Shown one piece after another: positions 6,071 through 37,104 of a stretch of 64,000 bases of DNA. Location: positions 2,016,001 to 2,080,000 of the forward strand of contig CAWCYI010000004.1 in assembly GCA_963799845.1 (NCBI GenBank). Reading direction: 5' to 3'. Every line of letters begins with the position of its first letter. Position 1 is the stretch's first letter. Below the pieces are notes generated by a model. It searched no databases. It was given only the letters and a program-made list of their open reading frames with translations, and had not been told where the DNA came from. A program made the position numbers and the translations under genes. Origin of the DNA: an uncultured Nitrososphaerota archaeon (GTDB lineage: Archaea > Thermoproteota > Nitrososphaeria > Nitrososphaerales > CADDZS01).

Positions 6071-6264
6071 TCCAGATCACCGATTGCTGCCAGAATCTCT
6101 TGCGCCTCGCCCGAGAGTTTGTGGATCTTTTCCAGATTTTCTCTGCCTATCTCGGGATGTCGATCTAGTAGAACCTGGGCGATGATCCCGACCATAGATT
6201 GAGACTTGATCATTTCCTTCACCAGCTCCGAGACTGACTTCTCTCGAATGGGTACTGCGCTCAT
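6055..6264 (-). CDS. Small hypothetical protein
   Basis: ATGA overlap with the ATPase stop. Confidence 0.55.
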   Translation of the reverse strand: MSAVPIREKSVSELVKEMIKSQSMVGIIAQVLLDRHPEIGRENLEKIHKLSGEAQEILAAIGDLDWHTK

Positions 6265-9200
6265 ATTCCTCTGACCTCTGGATTGAGTTGGTATTTTCCG
6301 TTGACCTTCACGATGAGTCCAATGGTCGTGAGATTAGAGAGTGCGTTCTTGAATCCGCCCGATACCTGGTAGCCAGTAGCTTCCGCAATTTCCTCTCTAC
6401 TGAACCCCTGATCAGGGTTCCTCAGAAGATACTCGTAGATTTTCTGTGGCTGTCCGCCGCCAAGATGTTTGAGCCATTCTTCCAACGCATCTACGCTCGG
6501 TTCTCTGTACTCATCTCCGAGAATTGCGATTATCTCGTTCAAGCGGTCCTCATTGACCGAGAAGCGATTTCCCCTCTGCAAAATGTAGCCCGCTGTTTTC
6601 AGCTTGCTCAAAGAATTCTTGAAGCCGCCTGATGTTGCGCTGTAAATTGTCATCGCCCCGATCTGTTCTCGCGAGAAATCTTTTCCAGGTCGTAATGCGA
6701 GCCACGCTAGGATCTTCCGTTCTGCTTTTCCGAGTTTAGATTCCTCACTGTCCAGTTCATCACTTTGAACAGGCATGGCTTGAACCACAGAGCGAGGCGT
6801 TATGACAGGTTTTGGTGCTTGTATTGGAATCGTTGCCCTAGTTGGAATCGTCTGAGCTTTGACCACTGGCTCAAATGGGATCACCTGCGGAATTTCGGGA
6901 ATCTCGGTCGCGAGAAACCTGTCCGCTTGATCTTTGATCGCAGCACCCTGTTTTCCGATGTTATCTCCGAAGGAACTAACCTGTCTCATAACATCCTTAG
7001 CTTTGAGGAACGCAGTCTGGATCGACTTGAAGCCAGCATTGAATTTCTCGATCATCGCGTTCTGACCTCTCGCGAAATATTCCTCTTGGATCGCCTTAAC
7101 TTTCTCAGGACTCATCGGAGCTTCAAACTGCTGCTGCGCGACCTTCGTTTCCAGATTCTTGTTTTTCATCGTGAGGCTCTGAATTGTGTTCAGGTGTTCG
7201 CGATCTCTAGTACGCAGCTCTCTCAACTCGTCGAGTTTTTTCCTCTTGACCTCGGGGATCTCCTGGAAAGCTTCGAGCTGGGGTTTCACGGCTTCGGGTG
7301 TCGGCGGCGGAATGTAGACCTGACCCGCTTCTTCGGCCTCGGGGTGATGCGTTTGGACCTGACCGACCTTCACCATTCGCAATCCTGAACTGAATATACC
7401 GCCAGAGGCGTAGAAGTACCCTGGCTCAATATTTCTTAATCCCTGCGTCTGCTCTTTGCCCTCTTTCCCGCTGCTAAATCCCAGAATGTCTGCGGCGCGA
7501 TCCTGATCTACATCGGCGTTGGTATTTCCGATCATGTAATTCTTGAGCTCGGCCACCACGTCTTTGCTAAGTTTCGCGAGTCGCTGCGTTGCAAGTACAA
7601 TCGCAAAGCCTCGCTTCCTTCCTTTGCTCGCCAGATCGCGCAGAGCTTGAAGCGAGCTGTCCTCTGGCGATTCCGAGGACGAACCCCTTCTGTGTCCCGA
7701 CTCGGCAGCATAATCGTGGGCTTCATCTATCCAGATCAGGGCCGGATGCCATAATTCCCTCGGGGCATTGACAAGCTGCTCGACAAATCTCGCAACGTAG
7801 ATCTGTCGCTCGGTAACTTTCAATTCGGAAATATCTACAATTAGAGAAGCTTTGGTCCGTAGAGCAGTTAGGGCGAGTGCGTCAGCGGTATTGGGATCCG
7901 CCTCAATGTCTCCCATTAACTTTCCGTCGTCATCGCGCTCGGCGGTCGCGAGGACAAAACCGAATTTCTCTCTGAGACTGGAAAACTCTCCCTCGGGATC
8001 GATTATGATCTGCTGGACGTATCCGAAGAAGAGCTCCATCAGCATCCGCATTAACCAAGAATTGTGTACAAAGATTCCATTTGCGTAGAAGTTTTCGTTG
8101 TCCTCAACTGTCAGGTCGTACACGAAATCTGTCGTCGATGGGAGTTTTTCCACTTCTGTAATTTCATCCCAGTACACGTCCGAATAGGCAAGCCGTTTGA
8201 TGCTGCTCAGTTGCAACTCCTCGACTATGTTTTGTAGTCGCCTTCGTCCTATTACTCCTGTTTGAACAGCCCCATCGATAGAACCGATTGGAGTCCACAC
8301 TGGATTGCCCTTAACATATCGCCCCCGTGAATCGAGCTCTTGCTTTGCATCTTGATACAATTTTGGAGTTGCTGGAATTACGTCGAGAGAATCATACTGC
8401 CAGGGTGAATCTTCGTGGAGAAGTTTCATTCTCCCGCCGATAGTTTCTAGGAATCTGTCGTATGATTCGCCCGAGAACGCTGCTCTATGGTATGGTGTGC
8501 CTCCGACAATCTTGGGTTTTAGATTCAATCGAGCTACGATGCCAAAGCGAAGCAGTAGAACAGCAATATCGGGTTTCAATTTTTGGCTCTTGGTAACATA
8601 TTCGATTGAATGGTGCTTCTTGCCTCTTGGATAGCCGTCGCCGTCAAAGTATCCCTGTAACAGACCCACACAGAATTCATCAGGCGCGTTAAGTACCCAA
8701 TTCGGTATTTTCTTGTTGCTAGATCCCGAACCGAATTGCTCGCTGATCCAATTTGCGAAAGAAATGCCAAAGATTGCAGCCTGACCGTTTCGCCCTGTTG
8801 AGTGAAAGCCGAGACTTTCACCAAAAGTTTTGACGCGATCTAATGTTTCCTGATTATTCTGAGTAACGTACGTTCCCCCGTGATGGACATGCCCTTCTGC
8901 CAGGTAGATGCCACAGAAGTAACCGAATTCGAGATCGAGCTGTAACTTTCTTTGTAAAATCTGGTGAGTGGCAAAATGTCCCTTCTGCGTCCACAAGTCG
9001 GCATTAATCTCTCTAATTGGCTCAGATGAAGGTAGAGATCTGGGAAGTGGAAAACACATTCCCTTTGACAGCTCACTTCCTTTGATCGCCACCCAATCAT
9101 TTTCTCTGAATACGAGAAAGCTATGATCATCTGTTCCAGTTACGACCCGACCCGATCTGGTGTGGACTCGGACGAGATTGTTAGGCGATTTGTGTTTTTG

Positions 9201-9545
9201 TACGGCGAGAACTCGTTTCCACTCTACCTTCAATTCATGGCTGAGCGAAAGCGTCTTGATCTCTGAATGGCGTGGATAAATCTCCGAGGCGAAAGCTTCC
9301 ATAGTAGTTAGGCGAATCTCTCCGTCGATGTTCAATAGAAGCTCGCTGTCGCCTGTTACGGACTTACCACCGCCACTTGAGGCTTCGATGATCATGCGAG
9401 TCTTGATCAGTTTGGGAAGGTCGATGGTCGCCTTTCCGTCCTCTTTGTAGTGCTGCTTTCCCTTCGAGTCAGTCTCGGTCTGTTCGACCCAGGTACCGAA
9501 ATCGAAGTACTGTTTGGATCGCTGCGATGTTTTCTGTGCGCTCAA
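6261..9545 (-). CDS. HerA/FtsK-superfamily (DUF87-like) ATPase with intein, coiled coil and two C-terminal wHTH domains
   Basis: Walker A ASSGGGK^S, IIIDPEGEF, Walker B IWIDEAH, KGRKRG and LATQR motifs; duplicated 'FSREx I...SGGFKNxLSxL' wHTH. Confidence 0.9.
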   Translation of the reverse strand: MSAQKTSQRSKQYFDFGTWVEQTETDSKGKQHYKEDGKATIDLPKLIKTRMIIEASSGGGKSVTGDSELLLNIDGEIRLTTMEAFASEIYPRHSEIKTLSLSHELKVEWKRVLAVQKHKSPNNLVRVHTRSGRVVTGTDDHSFLVFRENDWVAIKGSELSKGMCFPLPRSLPSSEPIREINADLWTQKGHFATHQILQRKLQLDLEFGYFCGIYLAEGHVHHGGTYVTQNNQETLDRVKTFGESLGFHSTGRNGQAAIFGISFANWISEQFGSGSSNKKIPNWVLNAPDEFCVGLLQGYFDGDGYPRGKKHHSIEYVTKSQKLKPDIAVLLLRFGIVARLNLKPKIVGGTPYHRAAFSGESYDRFLETIGGRMKLLHEDSPWQYDSLDVIPATPKLYQDAKQELDSRGRYVKGNPVWTPIGSIDGAVQTGVIGRRRLQNIVEELQLSSIKRLAYSDVYWDEITEVEKLPSTTDFVYDLTVEDNENFYANGIFVHNSWLMRMLMELFFGYVQQIIIDPEGEFSSLREKFGFVLATAERDDDGKLMGDIEADPNTADALALTALRTKASLIVDISELKVTERQIYVARFVEQLVNAPRELWHPALIWIDEAHDYAAESGHRRGSSSESPEDSSLQALRDLASKGRKRGFAIVLATQRLAKLSKDVVAELKNYMIGNTNADVDQDRAADILGFSSGKEGKEQTQGLRNIEPGYFYASGGIFSSGLRMVKVGQVQTHHPEAEEAGQVYIPPPTPEAVKPQLEAFQEIPEVKRKKLDELRELRTRDREHLNTIQSLTMKNKNLETKVAQQQFEAPMSPEKVKAIQEEYFARGQNAMIEKFNAGFKSIQTAFLKAKDVMRQVSSFGDNIGKQGAAIKDQADRFLATEIPEIPQVIPFEPVVKAQTIPTRATIPIQAPKPVITPRSVVQAMPVQSDELDSEESKLGKAERKILAWLALRPGKDFSREQIGAMTIYSATSGGFKNSLSKLKTAGYILQRGNRFSVNEDRLNEIIAILGDEYREPSVDALEEWLKHLGGGQPQKIYEYLLRNPDQGFSREEIAEATGYQVSGGFKNALSNLTTIGLIVKVNGKYQLNPEVRGI
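8061..9362 (-). mobile_element. Intein (434 aa) with LAGLIDADG homing endonuclease
   Basis: Starts SVTGD, block B TDDHSF, GIYLAEGH and LQGYFDGDG motifs, ends VYDLTV...VHN followed by Ser. Confidence 0.93.
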
Positions 9546-10198: not shown

Positions 10199-13100
10199 CT
10201 ACCATTTTGCTACAACGGCATCATTGCCCTTAGTGTCGAGTGCGAATTCTTTCTCGACCTGTTCCTTCGCCACTTCGCCAACGTCAGCTTCCCGCCAAAC
10301 CCCAGGATTTTTCACGATGAGTTTTTCCAGAGGCGTATTGGTCCGCTTGCAGTAGATTGTGTAGATGGCCTCGTTTTCTTTAGAGACGATCTGCGGCATG
10401 AAAGGTGGGGGCATCGGTTGGATCAAATTGATTTCGTGGTTCAGCCGATTGTACCAGAACATCAGGTGCTTCGCTTGCTTCCTCTGGAAAATCTTGCTCA
10501 TCGTCATCTGCCTGACGATTTCTTTGTCCTCGTCGTCCGCAGCGAAAGTTGCCAGAAGATTTTCCAGCGGAGATTCAGAGTCCGTGCGATCACTCGTGAG
10601 GCCGCGCCAGAAAGTATTCGCAGCCAGCCGCCTGACCTGTGGGGAAATTTCGCGGGTTAGCTGGGTCGCAACGTCCATCGCCATCCCGAAACGCCTCGCA
10701 GACCTGACACCTTTCTCGATCTGATTTCTCATCTGGACGTTCTCGCGCATCGAGGGATTGTTAGTACCTGCATCCGCAGCCTCGTCCAGAATGGATCGCA
10801 TAGGCAACTGCGTATGCTTCATCTTCCATGCGAGGGCAGAGTACCAGACGTTGATCGCGTTCCGCAGCTCCATATCTACGGGTTTGTGGGTCTTGTCATC
10901 TGTCCACTGCCGCCCGAGGTTTCGGACCGCTATGATCCCCGCTGCCCTGTCGTAACCAAACTCGGGCCCTTCCGCGATAGCTTTCAACTCGTTCAAACAA
11001 TCGGGAATATCAATCGCGAAATTTTCGTACTTCTCGACTTTGATTATCCGGTCATACTTGGTCATCACTTCACCATTCAGCACGTCCAGATTGTCTACAA
11101 TGTTCAGGATCAAGACGGGAACGCCCTGTGGCGGTATCTCGACTTCCTCGGCGCAGAATTTGTACGAGATGTTGCCAGGCATATTCATGTACGGCATGAA
11201 GGCCAGTGTCGGCCAGTTCGACGTTTCAGAAAGCGGGATCAGTACCGGGGCTTTGTGTTCGATAACAGTCTGGGCTGCGAGACGCGAAAGAATCGTAGAT
11301 TTTCCTGAATTGTGAACGATGAGTCCACAGCTCAGGACGTCACTGTTTGTTCCTGGTACATGTAAGTCAAAAGTGTCGGCCTCACCAACTCTTTCAATGG
11401 AGAGGATAGTAGCACTTGCGAGATTCTTGCAGGTCCAGCTCGAATATCCGTCTCGGTAAGTGTTATCGGATAGAGTCCAGCCATTCGCAAAAGTATCAAA
11501 CGTTCCTCGTCCCGTTGTGAATCCTGATGCCAGCGATCCCCATTCGCTTCGATTACGAAAATGGAATTCTTGATCCGAGATTCTGGAAATAAGAATCTGC
11601 CCGCTACGTGTACGCACTTGTTCCAATCCCATTCCAAGTTCATCATGTCGAGGACACGCGATACGTCGCGATGACGGCAACCGATATTTCGGCAAATGAT
11701 AGTGATCCTCTTTTTGGGAGTCAGTTTCTCCCGAATAGTTCTGGCGCAAGTTCGGCTGCAAAAACGGCGTTTGCTTGCGACGGGCTGGAAGGTTCCCTTT
11801 AGACAGTCGGGGTTCTCGCATTTCTTTGGTGGCGCGCGCGCGCATACGAGTTTCTTTGCCAAAGGCGGCTATTCGATCTCCAACATTCAGATTTTCAAGT
11901 GTCTGCCATTGCCCACCCAACTGCAAGAATTTGTGATCTGCGGTCGCGAGGACGATGCCGCTGCTTGTGGTCAGGCGATAAAGCATTTGTCGCTTGTTTT
12001 GAATTGGGATTGCTGATCTGAAAGCAAAGCTACCGTCTCTTTCCAGGGAGAGAACTTTCAGATCCTTTTGCCCCATAACGTCAGCAATTCTCCGTGGACC
12101 CGAGATTGTCTCGATTTGTGTCTCTGCGGACAAGCATCCGGGGTCGCCCGCGAAAAACGAGACTACTGCATATTGAGGACTAGGCATGTAGCGAAAATCG
12201 TAATCAAAGTACGCCTGAACAGTTCCAGTGAGTTCTCCGCTTCGCCAGAAATCTTGATCGATTGTCTGGAAAATAGCGTCGCCTCGGAAGCCGTCCTGAA
12301 TCCGTTGCTTCGATTCATCCGTATCTCCGACCTTATCCCAGATAATTTGCAGAGGTTCGGAGTATTCCACTTCTGCCCTAAACTTGTTGATCAGCGGCCC
12401 CTCGGTTAGAGCCATCATCTCTCCGAAAACTTGGTGGATCTGTTCCCACTCCGCGCCGAACTGAACTTTGTGATACTCTTTCAGCCAGCCGATACACTGC
12501 ACGTTGCTGGCTACTCGAAACAGATCCTGAATGTTGAAGTACCGCTTTGATCCGCCAATTTTGTCAATCGGTGTTTTCAAATCCAGCCCATTGTAAGCCG
12601 CGTAAATCATCAGTTGCAAGATCGCTTTCTCGTCGATGCTCGTGTTTTGCTCTCCGCGAATTGTCTCGAAGTGGAGATCTGAAAGGTAGCGTCGGTACTC
12701 CAAGTTGGAAATCTGAAAATGCTTCCAGCCGTAAGCCTCGTTCACGTCATCCATCAATGTAATGAGTGTCATGTATGCAGCAGCGTAAGCTTTCTCCATC
12801 GCCTCGTACGCGTACCATCCAGCCACGATAGCAGCGTCAGGTTCCACGCCCCTCATTGCAAACATTTCCTCAATTCTCGCGTAATCGTTCACGATTGCGT
12901 TTTCCAGCCTTTCGTACAAATCCTCGATGTTCAGGTTGAGGTCTGCGTAGTCGCTGGTCGCGATCCCCCGCCACGCCCTAGCGTTCCTATCTGAGACTTG
13001 CATCATGCGGTACTCGATGATCGTTTCGAGCTCTCGGGCATCCCGCTTTCTGCGGTTCTTCAAGTCGATTACTTGCAGCATGGTATTGTAGACACCGAGC

Positions 13101-13387
13101 GCGGCGTACATTTTCTCGCGCCATCCGAGAAAGGTCGCTAGACGCTTTTCGTGAACTTGAGCTCGGAAGGCAAATCGATTGAACTGCTCCAGTCCGTTGA
13201 ACCCGGCCATAATGCCCTTAATCTGCATCAAGAGGCCATATCGCTGATCGGCAATGCTGGTCGGATCAGCCTCCATCCTTTCCTGCGCGGCTTTTTGATC
13301 ATCCTCGAACTTCTGCGCCTCGTTCTGGAAAGTTTTCGCTACATTTTGCGGTGCGTATTCGTTGGAAACGCCAGAATCTTGAGCCAA
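10199..13387 (-). CDS. Large P-loop ATPase (FtsK/HerA-like; packaging or secretion type) with intein
   Basis: Spliced Walker A GDPG^SGKST, Walker B ILDEAAD, RSARRFG and VATQ motifs; long helical N-terminal region. Confidence 0.85.
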   Translation of the reverse strand: MAQDSGVSNEYAPQNVAKTFQNEAQKFEDDQKAAQERMEADPTSIADQRYGLLMQIKGIMAGFNGLEQFNRFAFRAQVHEKRLATFLGWREKMYAALGVYNTMLQVIDLKNRRKRDARELETIIEYRMMQVSDRNARAWRGIATSDYADLNLNIEDLYERLENAIVNDYARIEEMFAMRGVEPDAAIVAGWYAYEAMEKAYAAAYMTLITLMDDVNEAYGWKHFQISNLEYRRYLSDLHFETIRGEQNTSIDEKAILQLMIYAAYNGLDLKTPIDKIGGSKRYFNIQDLFRVASNVQCIGWLKEYHKVQFGAEWEQIHQVFGEMMALTEGPLINKFRAEVEYSEPLQIIWDKVGDTDESKQRIQDGFRGDAIFQTIDQDFWRSGELTGTVQAYFDYDFRYMPSPQYAVVSFFAGDPGCLSAETQIETISGPRRIADVMGQKDLKVLSLERDGSFAFRSAIPIQNKRQMLYRLTTSSGIVLATADHKFLQLGGQWQTLENLNVGDRIAAFGKETRMRARATKEMREPRLSKGNLPARRKQTPFLQPNLRQNYSGETDSQKEDHYHLPKYRLPSSRRIACPRHDELGMGLEQVRTRSGQILISRISDQEFHFRNRSEWGSLASGFTTGRGTFDTFANGWTLSDNTYRDGYSSWTCKNLASATILSIERVGEADTFDLHVPGTNSDVLSCGLIVHNSGKSTILSRLAAQTVIEHKAPVLIPLSETSNWPTLAFMPYMNMPGNISYKFCAEEVEIPPQGVPVLILNIVDNLDVLNGEVMTKYDRIIKVEKYENFAIDIPDCLNELKAIAEGPEFGYDRAAGIIAVRNLGRQWTDDKTHKPVDMELRNAINVWYSALAWKMKHTQLPMRSILDEAADAGTNNPSMRENVQMRNQIEKGVRSARRFGMAMDVATQLTREISPQVRRLAANTFWRGLTSDRTDSESPLENLLATFAADDEDKEIVRQMTMSKIFQRKQAKHLMFWYNRLNHEINLIQPMPPPFMPQIVSKENEAIYTIYCKRTNTPLEKLIVKNPGVWREADVGEVAKEQVEKEFALDTKGNDAVVAKW
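11309..12136 (-). mobile_element. Intein (276 aa) with no in-frame nuclease
   Basis: Starts CLSAET, block B ATADHKF, ends FDLHVPG...IVHN followed by Ser. Confidence 0.9.
11332..11862 (-). CDS. Zn-finger plus Vsr/DUF559-like (PD-(D/E)xK) endonuclease overprinted inside the intein
   Basis: CENPDC...RRFCSRTC, then VIEANGDRWH...RDEER...LRMAGLYPITLTETDI; different frame on the same strand, fully nested. Confidence 0.75.
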   Translation of the reverse strand: MAKKLVCARAPPKKCENPDCLKGTFQPVASKRRFCSRTCARTIREKLTPKKRITIICRNIGCRHRDVSRVLDMMNLEWDWNKCVHVAGRFLFPESRIKNSIFVIEANGDRWHQDSQRDEERLILLRMAGLYPITLTETDIRAGPARISQVLLSSPLKELVRPTLLTYMYQEQTVTS

Positions 13388-18362: not shown

Positions 18363-18689
18363 TCAGCCAACGGCTGGAAGCTGGTTTGCCAGCATCCGAC
18401 CTAATTTCTCGACGTGTTCAACGGTTATCTCGGGCAGCAGGATAGATCCGTAGGCTCTGTGCCGATCACGACCTTCGAGCATTGGAAAACGTCTGATTCT
18501 CCCACGGGCGTAGAGCCTGTTCACCGAATTCTGAGTCTGCCACCGAGTAGTGGATAACTCTTTCATTATTTCTGAGACACCCAAGTAGGCGAGTCCAGTT
18601 TTCTGATCTTCTTCCGTCAGGGCGCGAGCCTTTGAGTCGAGCAGCGCGAGGATTTTCTTCTGTGTGTGTCCTCGGCGGATCGCGCTCAT
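18363..18689 (-). CDS. Winged-helix DNA-binding protein
   Basis: 'VSEIMKELSTTRWQTQNSVNRLYARGRIRR' HTH pattern. Confidence 0.7.
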   Translation of the reverse strand: MSAIRRGHTQKKILALLDSKARALTEEDQKTGLAYLGVSEIMKELSTTRWQTQNSVNRLYARGRIRRFPMLEGRDRHRAYGSILLPEITVEHVEKLGRMLANQLPAVG

Positions 18690-19726
18690 TTGCTAACGAT
18701 CTGTTCCTCGCGCTCGTACATTTCTTTGATAGCTCGCGCCACGTCGAGCTTTTCTAAAAACTCGATCCGTTCCCTCAAGTCAGAGGACAATAGGTGCTTT
18801 CTCTCCGCGAGATATTCAACACACTTGCCAGCCTGTTTTCCGAGGAACGCTGGTGATGGCGGTTCGTCTTTTCTGGGCTTGGATCCGGATTTACCTTTCT
18901 CGCCCTCAGTCTCGCCCTGGGGAGCTTCGATCTGAGCAGGCTTGCCCATCCGCAGCCGTTTCCTGTTGATCACACTCGCTTTCGCAAAATCTGTAATCTC
19001 GGGCATCGGCTTGTTGTCGGCGATCATTTTCAAAAGTTCGAGGCGATCCGATTTGTCCTTCACTTGAGTAACAAGAGCTAGGTGCGGTTCTTTCATGTTC
19101 TTCACGATGTTGTTCCGAAGTTCCACCGCGTCTTTGATACCTTCCTGCTCGTCCAAAACTTCATCCATCGTTGCAGCGATCTGCAAACAAGTAGCAATGC
19201 GGTCCCGAGCTTTGTTGAAAAAGTCTGCGAGTCCAGGCACGTCGCATTTCAGAATCTTGCGCCCGATCATGTAGAGCTTTCCTTCTTCGTACATCTTGAG
19301 CTGTCGCCGCTGCAAGTTGTCGTCTGCCACGATTTTCATTACGACTAGCTGGCTGACGTTATCGAGGCATTGAAACTCTGCACTTTTGACCTCGGGCATG
19401 AACATCTTGATCGCGCTGCAACGCCTGTGTCCGGTAACTAACTCGTAATAGCCATCTTTCGCTTTTCTCGGATCGGAGTGAGGCACGATGATAGGGCGGG
19501 AGATCAGGCCATTCGCTCTAATGCTGTAAGCGAGCTCTTCCAACCCTTTGCGATCTTCGTAACCGAAAATTCGAGTCTGGTACTTGGACATTACAAGATG
19601 ATCCATGAACGCCGTTACGATATGCGAGTCGAAATTTCGGAGCTTCCCTGCGACCGTGATCTGATCATGCTTCTCGCTCGATGAAACGTGTTCGGGGTTT
19701 TGGCCTTCCTGTGCCGGCATTACCAT
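18686..19726 (-). CDS. ParB/Srx-family protein
   Basis: LEELAYSIRANGLISRPII, YELVTGHRR, DNLQRRQL motifs. Confidence 0.88.
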   Translation of the reverse strand: MVMPAQEGQNPEHVSSSEKHDQITVAGKLRNFDSHIVTAFMDHLVMSKYQTRIFGYEDRKGLEELAYSIRANGLISRPIIVPHSDPRKAKDGYYELVTGHRRCSAIKMFMPEVKSAEFQCLDNVSQLVVMKIVADDNLQRRQLKMYEEGKLYMIGRKILKCDVPGLADFFNKARDRIATCLQIAATMDEVLDEQEGIKDAVELRNNIVKNMKEPHLALVTQVKDKSDRLELLKMIADNKPMPEITDFAKASVINRKRLRMGKPAQIEAPQGETEGEKGKSGSKPRKDEPPSPAFLGKQAGKCVEYLAERKHLLSSDLRERIEFLEKLDVARAIKEMYEREEQIVSK

Positions 19727-27577: not shown

Positions 27578-29401
27578 TTAGGTGGAGGGGAATGGAGAAT
27601 AGTATACCTCAGTGAGAGAGCTCAAGCCCGGTGAGAAGTCTAGTCCTCCGACGCAGAAGATCTCAGCTTTGGCAGTGAAACATGATTGGTCTGAGACAGC
27701 TGAAGGATAGTCGGATCCAGCACTCCAATTGCCTAAACCTGACGAACTCACAAGGGAATAGTAGGTCTGATTCAACGAGTAGCCACTCGCATTCTCCCCT
27801 CCGACGCACTCTATTATTCCCGTGTTGTAGGCACACGCCGCGCTTGCAACCGCCCATGGGTACGCGGGACCCTGCGACCACGGCCCGATTTGCCCATTCG
27901 AGAATGGTGCGTAATACACGGCGTTAGTTACGCCATTCGGTCCATAGCCTCCGACACAAATGATCCAGCCTCCGCCGCTCGTGCATGGCATGCTGTAGTA
28001 AATGGAGACCGGATAGTTATAGGGAGAGAGTCGCCATTGTCCTAGACCGTTGCTCGTCATAGTCGCGTAATACACCGAGTTATCGTTTCCAGATATGCAG
28101 TAAACATAGTCTGATATTGACGCGCAGCTTCCAACAAAGTTCATTGGATAGCTGGTTGTCTCTTTCCAAACTCCGACTCCTGAGGATGAAATGGGGGCAT
28201 AATAGGTCGCATTGGTGTCACTGGGTGCGGCGTCGTCTCCACCAATGCAGTACACAAAGCCCCCGTAGGTGACGCACTGCAGATCCGTGTCGTTCAAAGG
28301 GTACGGAGTGGTGCTCTGCCACTCGCCTAAGCCACTAGAAGTTACCTCCGCGTAATAAGTCGCGTTTGATCCAGATTCATTGCCAATTCCGGCTATACAG
28401 TATACATAACCAGAGCTCTGCACACAGGACCCGTCGGCGAACTCTTGGGGATAGGTTGTCGTCGCGTTCCACAAAATGCCGTTGCTAACGACAGGATTCG
28501 GACCGGGGTAAGTGATTTCTGGCAAATACAGGAAAACGGTGAAATTGTTAGTCAGTGACCATTTCTGAGTAAACATTGTTCCTGAAACATTCTTCGAATC
28601 GATCGCGAAGCTCAAGCTGATACTGAAATTAGTCTGGGGACCGGTATAATTCTGCTGCATCACTTCGCCGATTTTGCCTTCTAGAAACTTTCCACCGCCC
28701 AAAGACCAATTGACATCTGTTGGTGGAGACCCACCATTAGGGACGTTCAGGCTCACCACATCAAAATCGAATGTACTAGAGCCAACCTGAGTAATGTTGA
28801 ACGATACAGTATCGAGCGGCATTTCGTTGTAGGGATCAGTAGCAGGATATACCGCATAGCAGGTCATCGTATTCTGGTTTGTAAAAATTGGGTAGGACTC
28901 TCCTCCACCACTCATGTCGCCACAATCCAGGCCGATCCCGGTCTGATTACCTGCCAGAAAATCACTGGTGTATTGAGAAATCCCAGCTGAGGGGCCACTC
29001 AACTGTCCCGAACTAAAGACCAGACTAGTGAAAACACCTCCGAAATGGCAGGGAGGTGGTGGCATGGTCGCGTTACCCTGCGAGCACGGCGTAAAAGTCG
29101 AGGTAGTCATCGGTGTCGAAGTAAAGTTTGTAATCACCCTAGTCGTGTTTGTCGAGCTATTCTGAATCGAAGAGTAATTTGCAATGTGTGAACCGCTCGA
29201 ATTGGAATATTCGCTGAGAGTTGTAGATTCCTGTGAAGAGGTGGTTGTAGCTGCCGAGATTGCAGTCGTTGTTGAAGAAGGTTGATCCAATACTACCGAA
29301 GATTGAGTAGAAGAGGTTACTTCAACAGCCGCAATGACTAATGCAGCAACAACAATCAAAGCACCGATAGCAAGGAGGGATGATCTCCCTGGCCGAGGCA
29401 A
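27578..29401 (-). CDS. Membrane-anchored protein with Kelch-like beta-propeller repeats
   Basis: About five repeats of 'YP....SC....GYVYCIGG....TYYA.I.S.G.G.W'. Confidence 0.8.
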   Translation of the reverse strand: MPRPGRSSLLAIGALIVVAALVIAAVEVTSSTQSSVVLDQPSSTTTAISAATTTSSQESTTLSEYSNSSGSHIANYSSIQNSSTNTTRVITNFTSTPMTTSTFTPCSQGNATMPPPPCHFGGVFTSLVFSSGQLSGPSAGISQYTSDFLAGNQTGIGLDCGDMSGGGESYPIFTNQNTMTCYAVYPATDPYNEMPLDTVSFNITQVGSSTFDFDVVSLNVPNGGSPPTDVNWSLGGGKFLEGKIGEVMQQNYTGPQTNFSISLSFAIDSKNVSGTMFTQKWSLTNNFTVFLYLPEITYPGPNPVVSNGILWNATTTYPQEFADGSCVQSSGYVYCIAGIGNESGSNATYYAEVTSSGLGEWQSTTPYPLNDTDLQCVTYGGFVYCIGGDDAAPSDTNATYYAPISSSGVGVWKETTSYPMNFVGSCASISDYVYCISGNDNSVYYATMTSNGLGQWRLSPYNYPVSIYYSMPCTSGGGWIICVGGYGPNGVTNAVYYAPFSNGQIGPWSQGPAYPWAVASAACAYNTGIIECVGGENASGYSLNQTYYSLVSSSGLGNWSAGSDYPSAVSDQSCFTAKAEIFCVGGLDFSPGLSSLTEVYYSPFPST

Positions 29402-36243: not shown

Positions 36244-37104
36244 TCAGGGAGCCATAAATGCGTTGATATTTTCTCTCGCCCACATTTCAAATGTGCGACC
36301 GTGGTGTCCCGTGAGTCTCTCCACGGTATCAGAAACATATCCAAATTTGCTGCTGCGAATAGCACCAAGCGACTCAACTAGTCCGGCTACGACTTGTGGC
36401 CCAAGACCCATTCTCGCCATCGGTTCTGCCGCGGCGGATTCCGGTACTTCTACGTAGCGGATAGATCTGCCCGTTGCTTTGGACAAAACATTGACCATGT
36501 CGGCGATTGTTAGAGACTCGGGGCCGGTGACATCGTAAGCGTGCCCTAGGTGTCCCGGTTCCGTCAGCACTATCTTTGCAACAGCTGCTATATCGTGTGG
36601 ATCCACCGGGGAAACTCGTCCCTTCCCGCCTGGAAAGAACACGGTATTCTGTTTCTGTATGTTTCTCGCCCACCACTGTATTGTGTTCGACATCATCATG
36701 TTGGGTCGGAGATGTGTCCAGGCGAGACCACTCGCCTCGATGCTCTTTTCATCTTCTCTGTGCCACTTCCCCGGGCCTATCGGCGGGACAGCCCCGGCTT
36801 CAATCGTCGACTGCCTTACGACGTGTTCTACGCCAGCTTCCTTTGCGGCTGCAATCAGGTTTGGTAGCTGGACTGAGCCAAATGTGATGGCGTATACTCC
36901 ACTCACACCATCCATGATTCCGCTTAGTGTTTCTGCTTTCTCCAGGTCGCAAACTCTTACATCAGCACGTCTGTCAATTAATTCTCTCCTAACTGAATCT
37001 CGCGTCAGCGCCCTAACATTCACACCCGAATCTAAGAGTTGGGGCACAAGTTCCTTCCCAACGTTTCCTGTCGAACCAGTCACAAGAATTACTTTCTTTG
37101 CCAC
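36244..37104 (-). CDS. NmrA-like atypical SDR oxidoreductase
   Basis: ILVTGSTGNVG Rossmann motif, WTHLRPN, VDPHDIA, YDVTGPESLT. Confidence 0.92.
   Translation of the reverse strand: MAKKVILVTGSTGNVGKELVPQLLDSGVNVRALTRDSVRRELIDRRADVRVCDLEKAETLSGIMDGVSGVYAITFGSVQLPNLIAAAKEAGVEHVVRQSTIEAGAVPPIGPGKWHREDEKSIEASGLAWTHLRPNMMMSNTIQWWARNIQKQNTVFFPGGKGRVSPVDPHDIAAVAKIVLTEPGHLGHAYDVTGPESLTIADMVNVLSKATGRSIRYVEVPESAAAEPMARMGLGPQVVAGLVESLGAIRSSKFGYVSDTVERLTGHHGRTFEMWARENINAFMAP

Follow-up and report, generated by a model that had tools for sequence, protein, structure and literature searches.

Contiguous inteins that carry their endonuclease in a separate reading frame have been described by Gosselin, Arsenault and Gogarten (2025, bioRxiv 10.1101/2025.01.02.630785), and the part of that preprint available to us lists antisense LAGLIDADG, antisense VSR-like and same-strand (frame 3) endonuclease VII-like genes, together with the proposal that inteins were invaded by free-standing endonuclease genes. 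An out-of-frame endonuclease is also reported for a cyanobacterial dnaX intein, where empty alleles coexist with it (Phillips et al. 2026, bioRxiv 10.64898/2026.09.14.751524), and a hidden out-of-frame HNH gene for an insert in a phage methylase (PMC11855218). In the fractured genes of Dassa et al. (2009, PMC2677866), phage terminase among them, a free-standing Vsr-like endonuclease gene lies between the halves of a split intein, and its 3′ end overlaps the coding region of the C-intein by 6–69 bp at 15 loci. The EDxHD/Vsr-like homing endonuclease I-Bth0305I, finally, belongs to a group I intron in phage recA (Taylor et al. 2011, PMC3239194; PDB 3R3P). Here, we report a P-loop ATPase gene of an uncultured Nitrososphaerota archaeon whose Walker A motif is interrupted by an intein, and a second, nuclease-like open reading frame (ORF) that runs through the middle of this intein, shifted by one base. 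The gene lies in a stretch of 64,000 nucleotides (nt), called the window below (contig CAWCYI010000004.1, positions 2,016,001 to 2,080,000); all coordinates are those of the whole window, and host gene, intein and second ORF are all on its minus strand (-). The preliminary description of this DNA had supposed that out-of-frame nucleases in insertion elements may have precedent. In the available portions of the reports of Gosselin et al. and Phillips et al. they do, and the layout is not new: the locus is an archaeal example of an already described arrangement, with a decaying nuclease. We read it, with moderate confidence, as a dual-coded intein that was kept by selection in the past and that now carries a dead or dying nuclease beside empty alleles.

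The intein and its empty alleles

The host gene (10199-13387) is a 1062-aa ORF that comprises a 786-aa P-loop nucleoside triphosphatase and an intein of 276 codons (11309-12136). The N-extein (12137-13387) ends in ...VVSFFAGDPG and shares 353 of 380 aligned residues with P0001, a relative known as protein only, while the C-extein (10199-11308) begins with SGKSTILSRL, the remainder of the Walker A motif, which is thereby split into ...FFAGDPG and SGKSTILS.... The intein itself extends from CLSAET to GLIVHN, followed by SGKST. Its N-terminal splicing part (residues 1-95, 11852-12136) holds Cys1 and the block B motif TADH (TxxH), and its C-terminal splicing part (residues 236-276, 11309-11431) ends in GLIVHN, with the C-terminal VHN directly before Ser+1. 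Between the two lies a host-frame spacer of 140 aa (residues 96-235, 11432-11851), an Arg/Ser-rich read-through of the nuclease gene.

Two intein models give matches that are significant by E-value but score below their curated cut-offs: Pfam Intein_splicing reaches intein residue 276 (E 3.5e-8, 33.8 bits for a cut-off of 35.8), the NCBIfam model TIGR01445 (intein_Nterm) matches the N-terminal splicing part (E 2.5e-4, 21.9 bits for a cut-off of 24.5), and so does PRK07773, a model of an intein-bearing helicase (E 1.9e-12). The C-terminal splicing part is 34-37% identical to the C-intein parts of three relatives (loci L006, L007 and L008), which are interrupted at the same position of the Walker A motif, between G and SGKS.

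Intein-free alleles define the boundaries. Two homologues, P0011 (791 aa) and P0021 (786 aa), are 87% identical in the exteins and read ...FFAGDPGSGKSTILS..., that is, GDPGSGKST without insert. In sequencing run X1, a diverged strain is represented by two contigs in which position 11307 is joined to 12136, exactly 828 nt being skipped, and the same run holds both alleles at similar contig depths, 8.9 for the intein-bearing and 7.2 for the empty one. A more distant homologue without intein is present in genome G012, the only one among 40 genomes of relatives in which the host gene was found; a second copy within the archaeon's own genome was not found, and among 400 other genomes of the class only 2 match P0001, solely in the N-terminal intein part. 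The 276-codon intein proposed in the preliminary description is thus real, as its motifs, the Pfam and NCBIfam matches and its exact absence from P0011 and P0021 attest. Intact splicing motifs and an intact host ORF suggest that it splices. Its assignment as a contiguous intein of class-1 type that interrupts the Walker A motif of a P-loop ATPase at GDPG^SGKST, taken jointly with the decay of its nuclease, is in our view fairly probable.

The nuclease-like frame inside the intein

The second ORF (11332-11862), shifted by +1 against the frame of the host gene, is 176 codons long, starts with TTG (11860-11862) and ends with TGA; from one stop to the next its frame extends over 178 codons, and the first ATG does not occur before residue 72. 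It begins directly after the N-terminal splicing part and ends 8 codons before the end of the intein, and its tail (11332-11431) overlaps the C-terminal splicing part. Similar long C-terminal tails are found in the related proteins P0024, P0025 and P0003. The spacer, in the host frame, contains 13.6% Arg, 10% Ser and 0.7% Val, compared with 6.2%, 3.9% and 5.6% in the exteins, and is also poor in Ile and Ala. ORFs of this kind go unreported by ordinary gene callers.

Both frames are real, and an assembly artefact is excluded as the source of the layout. A Logan contig of 1068 nt from run X1 spans 11205-12272 with 2 substitutions and no gaps, and one of 649 nt from run X2 spans 11206-11854 with the same 2 substitutions and again no gaps. 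Contigs from two further runs, each of another study, cover the N-terminal part without gaps, that of X5 spanning 11856-12145 with 1 substitution and that of X4 adding to the same coverage. The protein P0018 (1062 aa), from a separate JGI metagenome contig, differs from the window protein at 2 residues. Because of these gap-free contigs from several runs and the frame of P0018, compensating indel errors, which were looked for, are judged absent. The preliminary description had noted an intein frame with an Arg-rich middle, two frames open over about 530 nt and a set of motifs, C-x4-C...FCSRTC, FPES, IEANGDRWH (11527-11553) and GLYPI, all of which are present in the DNA as described.

Two side observations concern copies of the same gene. 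Near-identical host genes on two ENA contigs of 20,094 and 31,822 nt (P0012, P0015, P0016, P0019 and P0020) are called in 2-4 pieces, with shifts among all three frames, and these copies may be either products of error-prone assembly or pseudogenised. The codon at 11340-11342, in the C-terminal splicing part, varies between copies: it encodes Asp in the window, Tyr in P0018, His in P0019 and, as deduced from the two base changes, Tyr in the X1 and X2 contigs as well. Its counterpart is aromatic in the same-site relatives L006 and L007, and the base changes also alter the tail of the +1 frame (V, A or T).

The +1 ORF was compared by phmmer with 1.84 billion representative sequences at E<=1e-3 and gave 10 matches, from P0001 (2.6e-59) through P0002 (1.8e-11) and P0003 (2.4e-10) to the weakest at 3.9e-4. 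P0002-P0010, which measure 98-322 aa, combine FCS-type zinc fingers with a nuclease domain. Of the ten sequences in the alignment of the window ORF with these nine (A2), 7 give a match to Pfam DUF559 (best E 1.9e-15) and 6 give one to Vsr. The +1 ORF of the window itself has no direct Pfam match at E<=1, and hence neither of these two; NCBIfam gave 0 matches to it, PHROGs two at chance level (E 0.21 and 0.23), and phmmer against the PDB nothing meaningful. The A2 profile, on the other hand, matches the catalytic domain of I-Bth0305I (3r3p_A, E 4e-5), a DUF559 structure (3hrl_A, E 8e-4) and, weakly, the FCS finger 2l8e (E 0.041). An AF2 model based on a 19-sequence alignment (pLDDT 84.3) has 3r3p_A as its top Foldseek match (E 5e-4, prob 1.00, TMt 0.62), with 1vsr and 1cw0 lower. 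A fold predicted by AF2 from the single sequence was unusable (pLDDT 42.8) and was discarded. ESM Atlas pointed to DUF559 and zf-FCS clusters, with zf-FCS in 14-19% of members, and served as a lead only.

Two parts of the +1 ORF resemble those of such enzymes. An FCS-type zinc-finger-like motif, C-x4-C ... FCSRTC, lies at 11746-11820; its counterpart in P0024 and P0025, two-fingered full-length relatives of P0002 and P0004, is their second finger. Its pattern is C-x4-C rather than CxxC, it has no Pfam match, and the match of the profile to 2l8e is the weak one given above. The nuclease core (11404-11676) shares 101 of 116 residues with P0001 in the +1 frame and keeps the E-x-[ND]-G-x-x-W-H block as IEANGDRWH, whose Glu, Trp and His do not vary across alignment A5; the Trp and His of this block are Vsr Trp68 and His69 as named by Dassa et al. 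(2009, PMC2677866). The Vsr/DUF559-like nuclease that had been proposed for 11332-11862 is borne out by the phmmer matches, by the Pfam matches within A2, by the profile matches to 3r3p_A and 3hrl_A and by the AF2 model with its Foldseek match, and the zinc finger proposed beside it is probable. Judged from these similarities, the +1 ORF appears to be truly derived from a zinc-finger and Vsr/DUF559-like homing endonuclease of the I-Bth0305I kind.

Selection on the two frames was addressed by resampling synonymous codons with the codon usage of the window in 10,000 trials. When the +1 protein was held constant, 1 of the 10,000 trials gave an open host frame, and the average number of stops was 8.4, where 0 are observed; for the nuclease part alone, 5.4 stops are expected and an open host frame has P 0.002. 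When the host-frame protein was held constant, the +1 frame was open in 1.1% of trials, and the longest open run in the +1 frame of the other 18 window ORFs of at least 300 aa is 99 codons. There are 43 junctions at which a T before an AA, AG or GA codon would create a host-frame stop: none has the T, and 29 could have it synonymously. The equivalent frame in the nuclease genes of relatives contains 4-56 stops in all 12 of 12 cases, at GC contents of 23-60%. Stops are avoided in the host frame, which has to be free of them if the C-extein is to be made and the intein to splice; this frame looks selected to stay open, and with it the dual coding looks selected.

The differences from P0001 tell where the conservation lies. 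In the host frame, 22 of 52 residues are identical in the spacer, compared with 69 of 95 in the N-terminal intein part. The spacer has 30 differences, 22 of which come down to one change at the first position of a host codon; elsewhere such changes make up 18 of 53 (Fisher p 0.0007). For 21 of the 30 the +1 frame can stay unchanged, compared with 15 of the 53 in the N-extein and the N-terminal part of the intein. As far as these substitutions tell, the spacer is conserved in the +1 frame and poorly conserved in the host frame.

Probable decay of the nuclease and alternative readings

The nuclease gene in the window is shortened. A tblastn search with P0001 follows the host frame for residues 1-527, to about 11693, and the +1 frame for residues 645-760, from about 11670, leaving a deletion junction (11671-11692) of 22 nt where P0001 has 351 nt (117 residues), a net shortening of 329 nt relative to this closest relative. 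The missing segment comprises a helical region and a zinc finger as well as the helix with the [ST]xxE motif at the start of the catalytic domain; 18 of 18 aligned relatives have this helix, and the window ORF lacks it through the deletion. In addition, the PD motif reads FPES (11578-11589), with Asp changed to Glu and Phe to Ser; the Asp, which we take to be the equivalent of Vsr Asp51, is present in 18 of 18 aligned relatives. Among near-identical copies the motif is FPDF in P0001, FPEF in P0019, FPES in the window and in P0018 and, as read from the host-frame protein, FPDS in P0012, a variation that suggests relaxed constraint. Two earlier proposals were accordingly right in part. The nuclease, with its FPES, had been said to be perhaps degenerate or miscalled, and FPES is degenerate but a real substitution and no miscall; the idea of an overprinted homing endonuclease holds for homology and for the dual frames, but not for a complete hidden enzyme, the nuclease being a net 329 nt shorter than that of P0001 and having lost motifs. 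The nuclease of this copy is most likely dead or dying.

The history that we propose runs as follows. A gene of the free-standing endonuclease type lies one base over in the spacer of an intein that lacks an in-frame endonuclease domain, with about 140 unconserved codons between its splicing parts, and the 3′ end of this gene enters the C-terminal splicing part. Historically the nuclease frame would have been under purifying selection and the host frame merely kept free of stops. A deletion in this copy and its near-identical relatives would then have taken away one zinc finger, together with the helical region and the opening helix of the catalytic domain; both frames would have stayed open after it, and the metal-binding Asp would afterwards have become Glu. 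The intein would now be at the decay stage of the homing cycle (the model of PMC1654191), coexisting with empty alleles. That the element was once active in homing, and that the deletion was in-frame, we infer. A deletion of this kind is the only one that the host gene tolerates and leaves the +1 ORF open without selection, and the ORF is therefore read as a recent relic. Within the clade of near-identical copies, substitutions are too few for a test of selection after the deletion.

Several points weigh against this history. The Pfam Intein_splicing and TIGR01445 scores are slightly under their curated cut-offs. The substitution tests consist of one pairwise comparison, with P0001, and a minimal-change inference of codons, and codon-usage scoring favours neither frame in the spacer. 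P0001 as called has its nuclease in the frame of the N-extein, so that a full-length ancestor with both frames open has to be postulated. The +1 ORF is still fully open over its 176 codons, Glu can replace Asp at the metal sites of some nucleases, and P0012 seems to keep the Asp. The AF2 model of the truncated protein is confident, though driven by the relatives in its alignment, and nuclease activity cannot be read from sequence.

Some of these points would favour an unlikely, though the best surviving, alternative: that the shortened ORF, with one zinc finger and the core, is still an active homing endonuclease and the intein still mobile, translation occurring from the TTG at 11860-11862 or through coupling to the host message. 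The ORF is intact where chance would leave the +1 frame open so rarely in the resampling, the E-x-N-G-x-x-W-H block is kept, the fold model is confident, and the similar depths of the two alleles in X1 (8.9 and 7.2) are as expected for a spreading element. Against an active enzyme stand the loss of both the [ST]xxE helix and the Asp, each found in 18 of 18 relatives, the absence of some 117 residues that P0001 keeps, the lack of an ATG before residue 72, and a PD motif that differs among near-identical copies and suggests relaxed constraint; moreover, the in-frame deletion leaves the ORF open even when selection is gone.

Another origin of the layout, which bears on the past dual coding, is brought into view by the relatives. 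Their loci were collected by a fetch with the family pattern, and contexts were read for 16 of 23 (L006-L015 and L023-L028). In L006, a stop closes the ORF of the N-extein and N-intein; next comes a free-standing nuclease gene, shifted by +1 against either half of the intein, and after it the C-intein and C-extein, 38 host-frame stops separating the two halves. In L007 (5116-7160) and L008 (1151-3189), a single ORF runs through the N-extein, the N-intein and a Vsr-like nuclease. The C-intein and C-extein are read in a different frame from a Met and overlap this ORF by about 28 nt; the nuclease is therefore fused to one half of a split intein. P0001 as called is likewise a single ORF from the N-extein through the nuclease, and P0023 is a separate ORF with the C-extein, on a contig probably shared with P0001; the DNA of P0001, P0002 and P0003 was not found in the genome-contig or viral-contig collections. 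From P0001 as called one may argue to a split locus of the L007 type and from there to a window gene whose halves were re-fused by a deletion of 329 nt (3n+2). On this view the ancestor would have been a split intein whose N-half carried the nuclease as a fusion, and lasting dual coding would never have existed.

This second alternative we regard as rather improbable, and as less credible than continued activity. It is favoured by P0001 and P0023 as called, by the layouts of L007 and L008 and the classical fractured gene of L006, all at the same Walker A position, and by a length difference from P0001 that is no multiple of 3. It is opposed by the host frame, which is stop-free over the nuclease part where 5.4 stops would be expected, and by the relatives, 12 of 12 of which have stops in the equivalent frame. 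Upstream of residue 527, furthermore, the frame of P0001 is not the conserved one: with 21 of 30 differences silent in the +1 frame, which there encodes a zinc finger, the substitutions suggest that the ORF of P0001 was joined by a 1-nt indel, and other ENA contigs of the gene are full of frameshifts (P0012, P0015, P0019, P0020). That the nuclease truly lies in the intein frame and was displaced by two compensating assembly indels is by far the least credible alternative: no direct support for it was found beyond the frameshifts that related ENA contigs do carry, and against it stand the gap-free coverage of the whole ORF in X1 and X2 and of the N-terminal part in X5 and X4, the identical 1062-aa frame of P0018 and a host frame that is not free of stops by chance.

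Genomic setting and comparison with known systems

The host ATPase has no recognisable family beyond its P-loop, and a Pfam search with the intein-free homologue P0011 gave weak P-loop matches. Its neighbour (6261-9545, minus strand) encodes a HerA/FtsK-like ATPase with weak DUF87, AAA and Zot matches, and this gene too contains an intein (about 8061-9362) in its Walker A motif (GGGK/S...VHN/SW), here with an ordinary in-frame LAGLIDADG_3 domain (E 5e-20). Two adjacent P-loop genes are thus each intein-bearing, and the types of intein endonuclease differ between neighbours. Of the 20 larger ORFs of the window, 17 have no Pfam family; matches were found to ParB_N (18686-19726) and NmrA-like (36244-37104), and one to Kelch repeats (27578-29401) lies below the cut-off. 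No tRNA genes were found in the 64,000 nt, and the left part of the window resembles an integrated mobile element. The runs that hold the window stretch are soil and peat metagenomes, with no RNA dataset among the 11. The sole match to small-subunit ribosomal RNA in the genome (G000, contig C1, 1-826, L039) is a fragment of about 800 nt cut by the contig end and is best fitted by the archaeal model (776 bits). The region around the host gene is rich in ORFans and probably mobile, and belongs to a soil or peat archaeon.

The same nuclease family occurs in further settings among the 16 loci read. In L010, L023, L024 and L028 it is fully in frame within ordinary inteins that end in ...VHN/C, and in the remaining loci it is free-standing. 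At one of these (L009, 290-1499), the gene of the free-standing P0007 stops a few bases short of a P-loop gene whose GQQGSGKS motif is uninterrupted, and an endonuclease gene therefore stands beside an empty target-like site. The pattern of the metagenome scan, EC[ND]GxYWH, does not admit proteins of the type found in the window, and a second scan of genome contigs gave 6 distant bacterial loci at 25-30% identity. Back-translation of the tails of P0002-P0004 is compatible with an overlap with intein block F, a result that comes with no control statistic and is not used as evidence here.

A series presents itself at one Walker A site: a fractured gene, a fusion of N-intein and nuclease, an in-frame intein and the dual-coded intein. 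It agrees with a model of mini-inteins being invaded by free-standing endonuclease genes. A wider generalisation, which we put forward tentatively and rate somewhat below the dual-coding history itself, is that archaeal mobile elements carry a lineage of P-loop inteins with a stably +1-overprinted Vsr-like gene whose tail lies over the C-terminal splicing domain, and that the fractured, half-fused and in-frame relatives form, together with it, a living series of the entry of free-standing endonuclease genes into inteins and of their later loss through in-frame deletions dictated by the host frame. The locus also shows a form of decay in a dual-coded intein element: only deletions that keep the host frame survive, and a dead nuclease ORF consequently stays open and can mislead annotation.

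When set against the described systems, the nuclease is closest to I-Bth0305I (PMC3239194), the best match of solved structure to the family of the +1 ORF by both profile and fold; I-Bth0305I, as far as the available account goes, is encoded by an intron, whereas the nuclease of the window is overprinted on an intein and has no first domain helix. With the canonical inteins of the four in-frame loci it shares the family of zinc finger and nuclease between splicing parts, but there one frame encodes everything and here the nuclease is shifted by +1. The fractured genes of Dassa et al. (PMC2677866), in their accessible description, have the same kind of nuclease with a 3′ end that overlaps the C-terminal intein part; their host frame is closed, as by the 38 stops of L006, and their protein is re-joined in trans, whereas the host frame here is open and the intein is in one piece. 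Inspection by eye revealed no start codon (ATG, GTG or TTG) in the host frame directly before the C-terminal part.

With the out-of-frame inteins of Gosselin et al. (10.1101/2025.01.02.630785) and Phillips et al. (10.64898/2026.09.14.751524), as these are presented in the available portions of the two preprints, the locus shares a contiguous intein, an unstructured spacer in the host frame, an endonuclease that the same DNA encodes in another frame, coexisting empty alleles and a proposed origin by invasion of an intein. In the literature available to us, no same-strand Vsr-like and no archaeal out-of-frame case was found, and the supplementary tables of these works may list same-strand VSR-like ones. 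The VSR-like genes of Gosselin et al. are antisense, whereas the one reported here is on the same strand in the +1 frame; the hosts in those studies are actinobacteriophages or a cyanobacterium, and the host here is an archaeon whose copy of the nuclease is truncated. The out-of-frame endonuclease layout thereby gains an archaeal case, and one in which a Vsr-like nuclease lies on the same strand.

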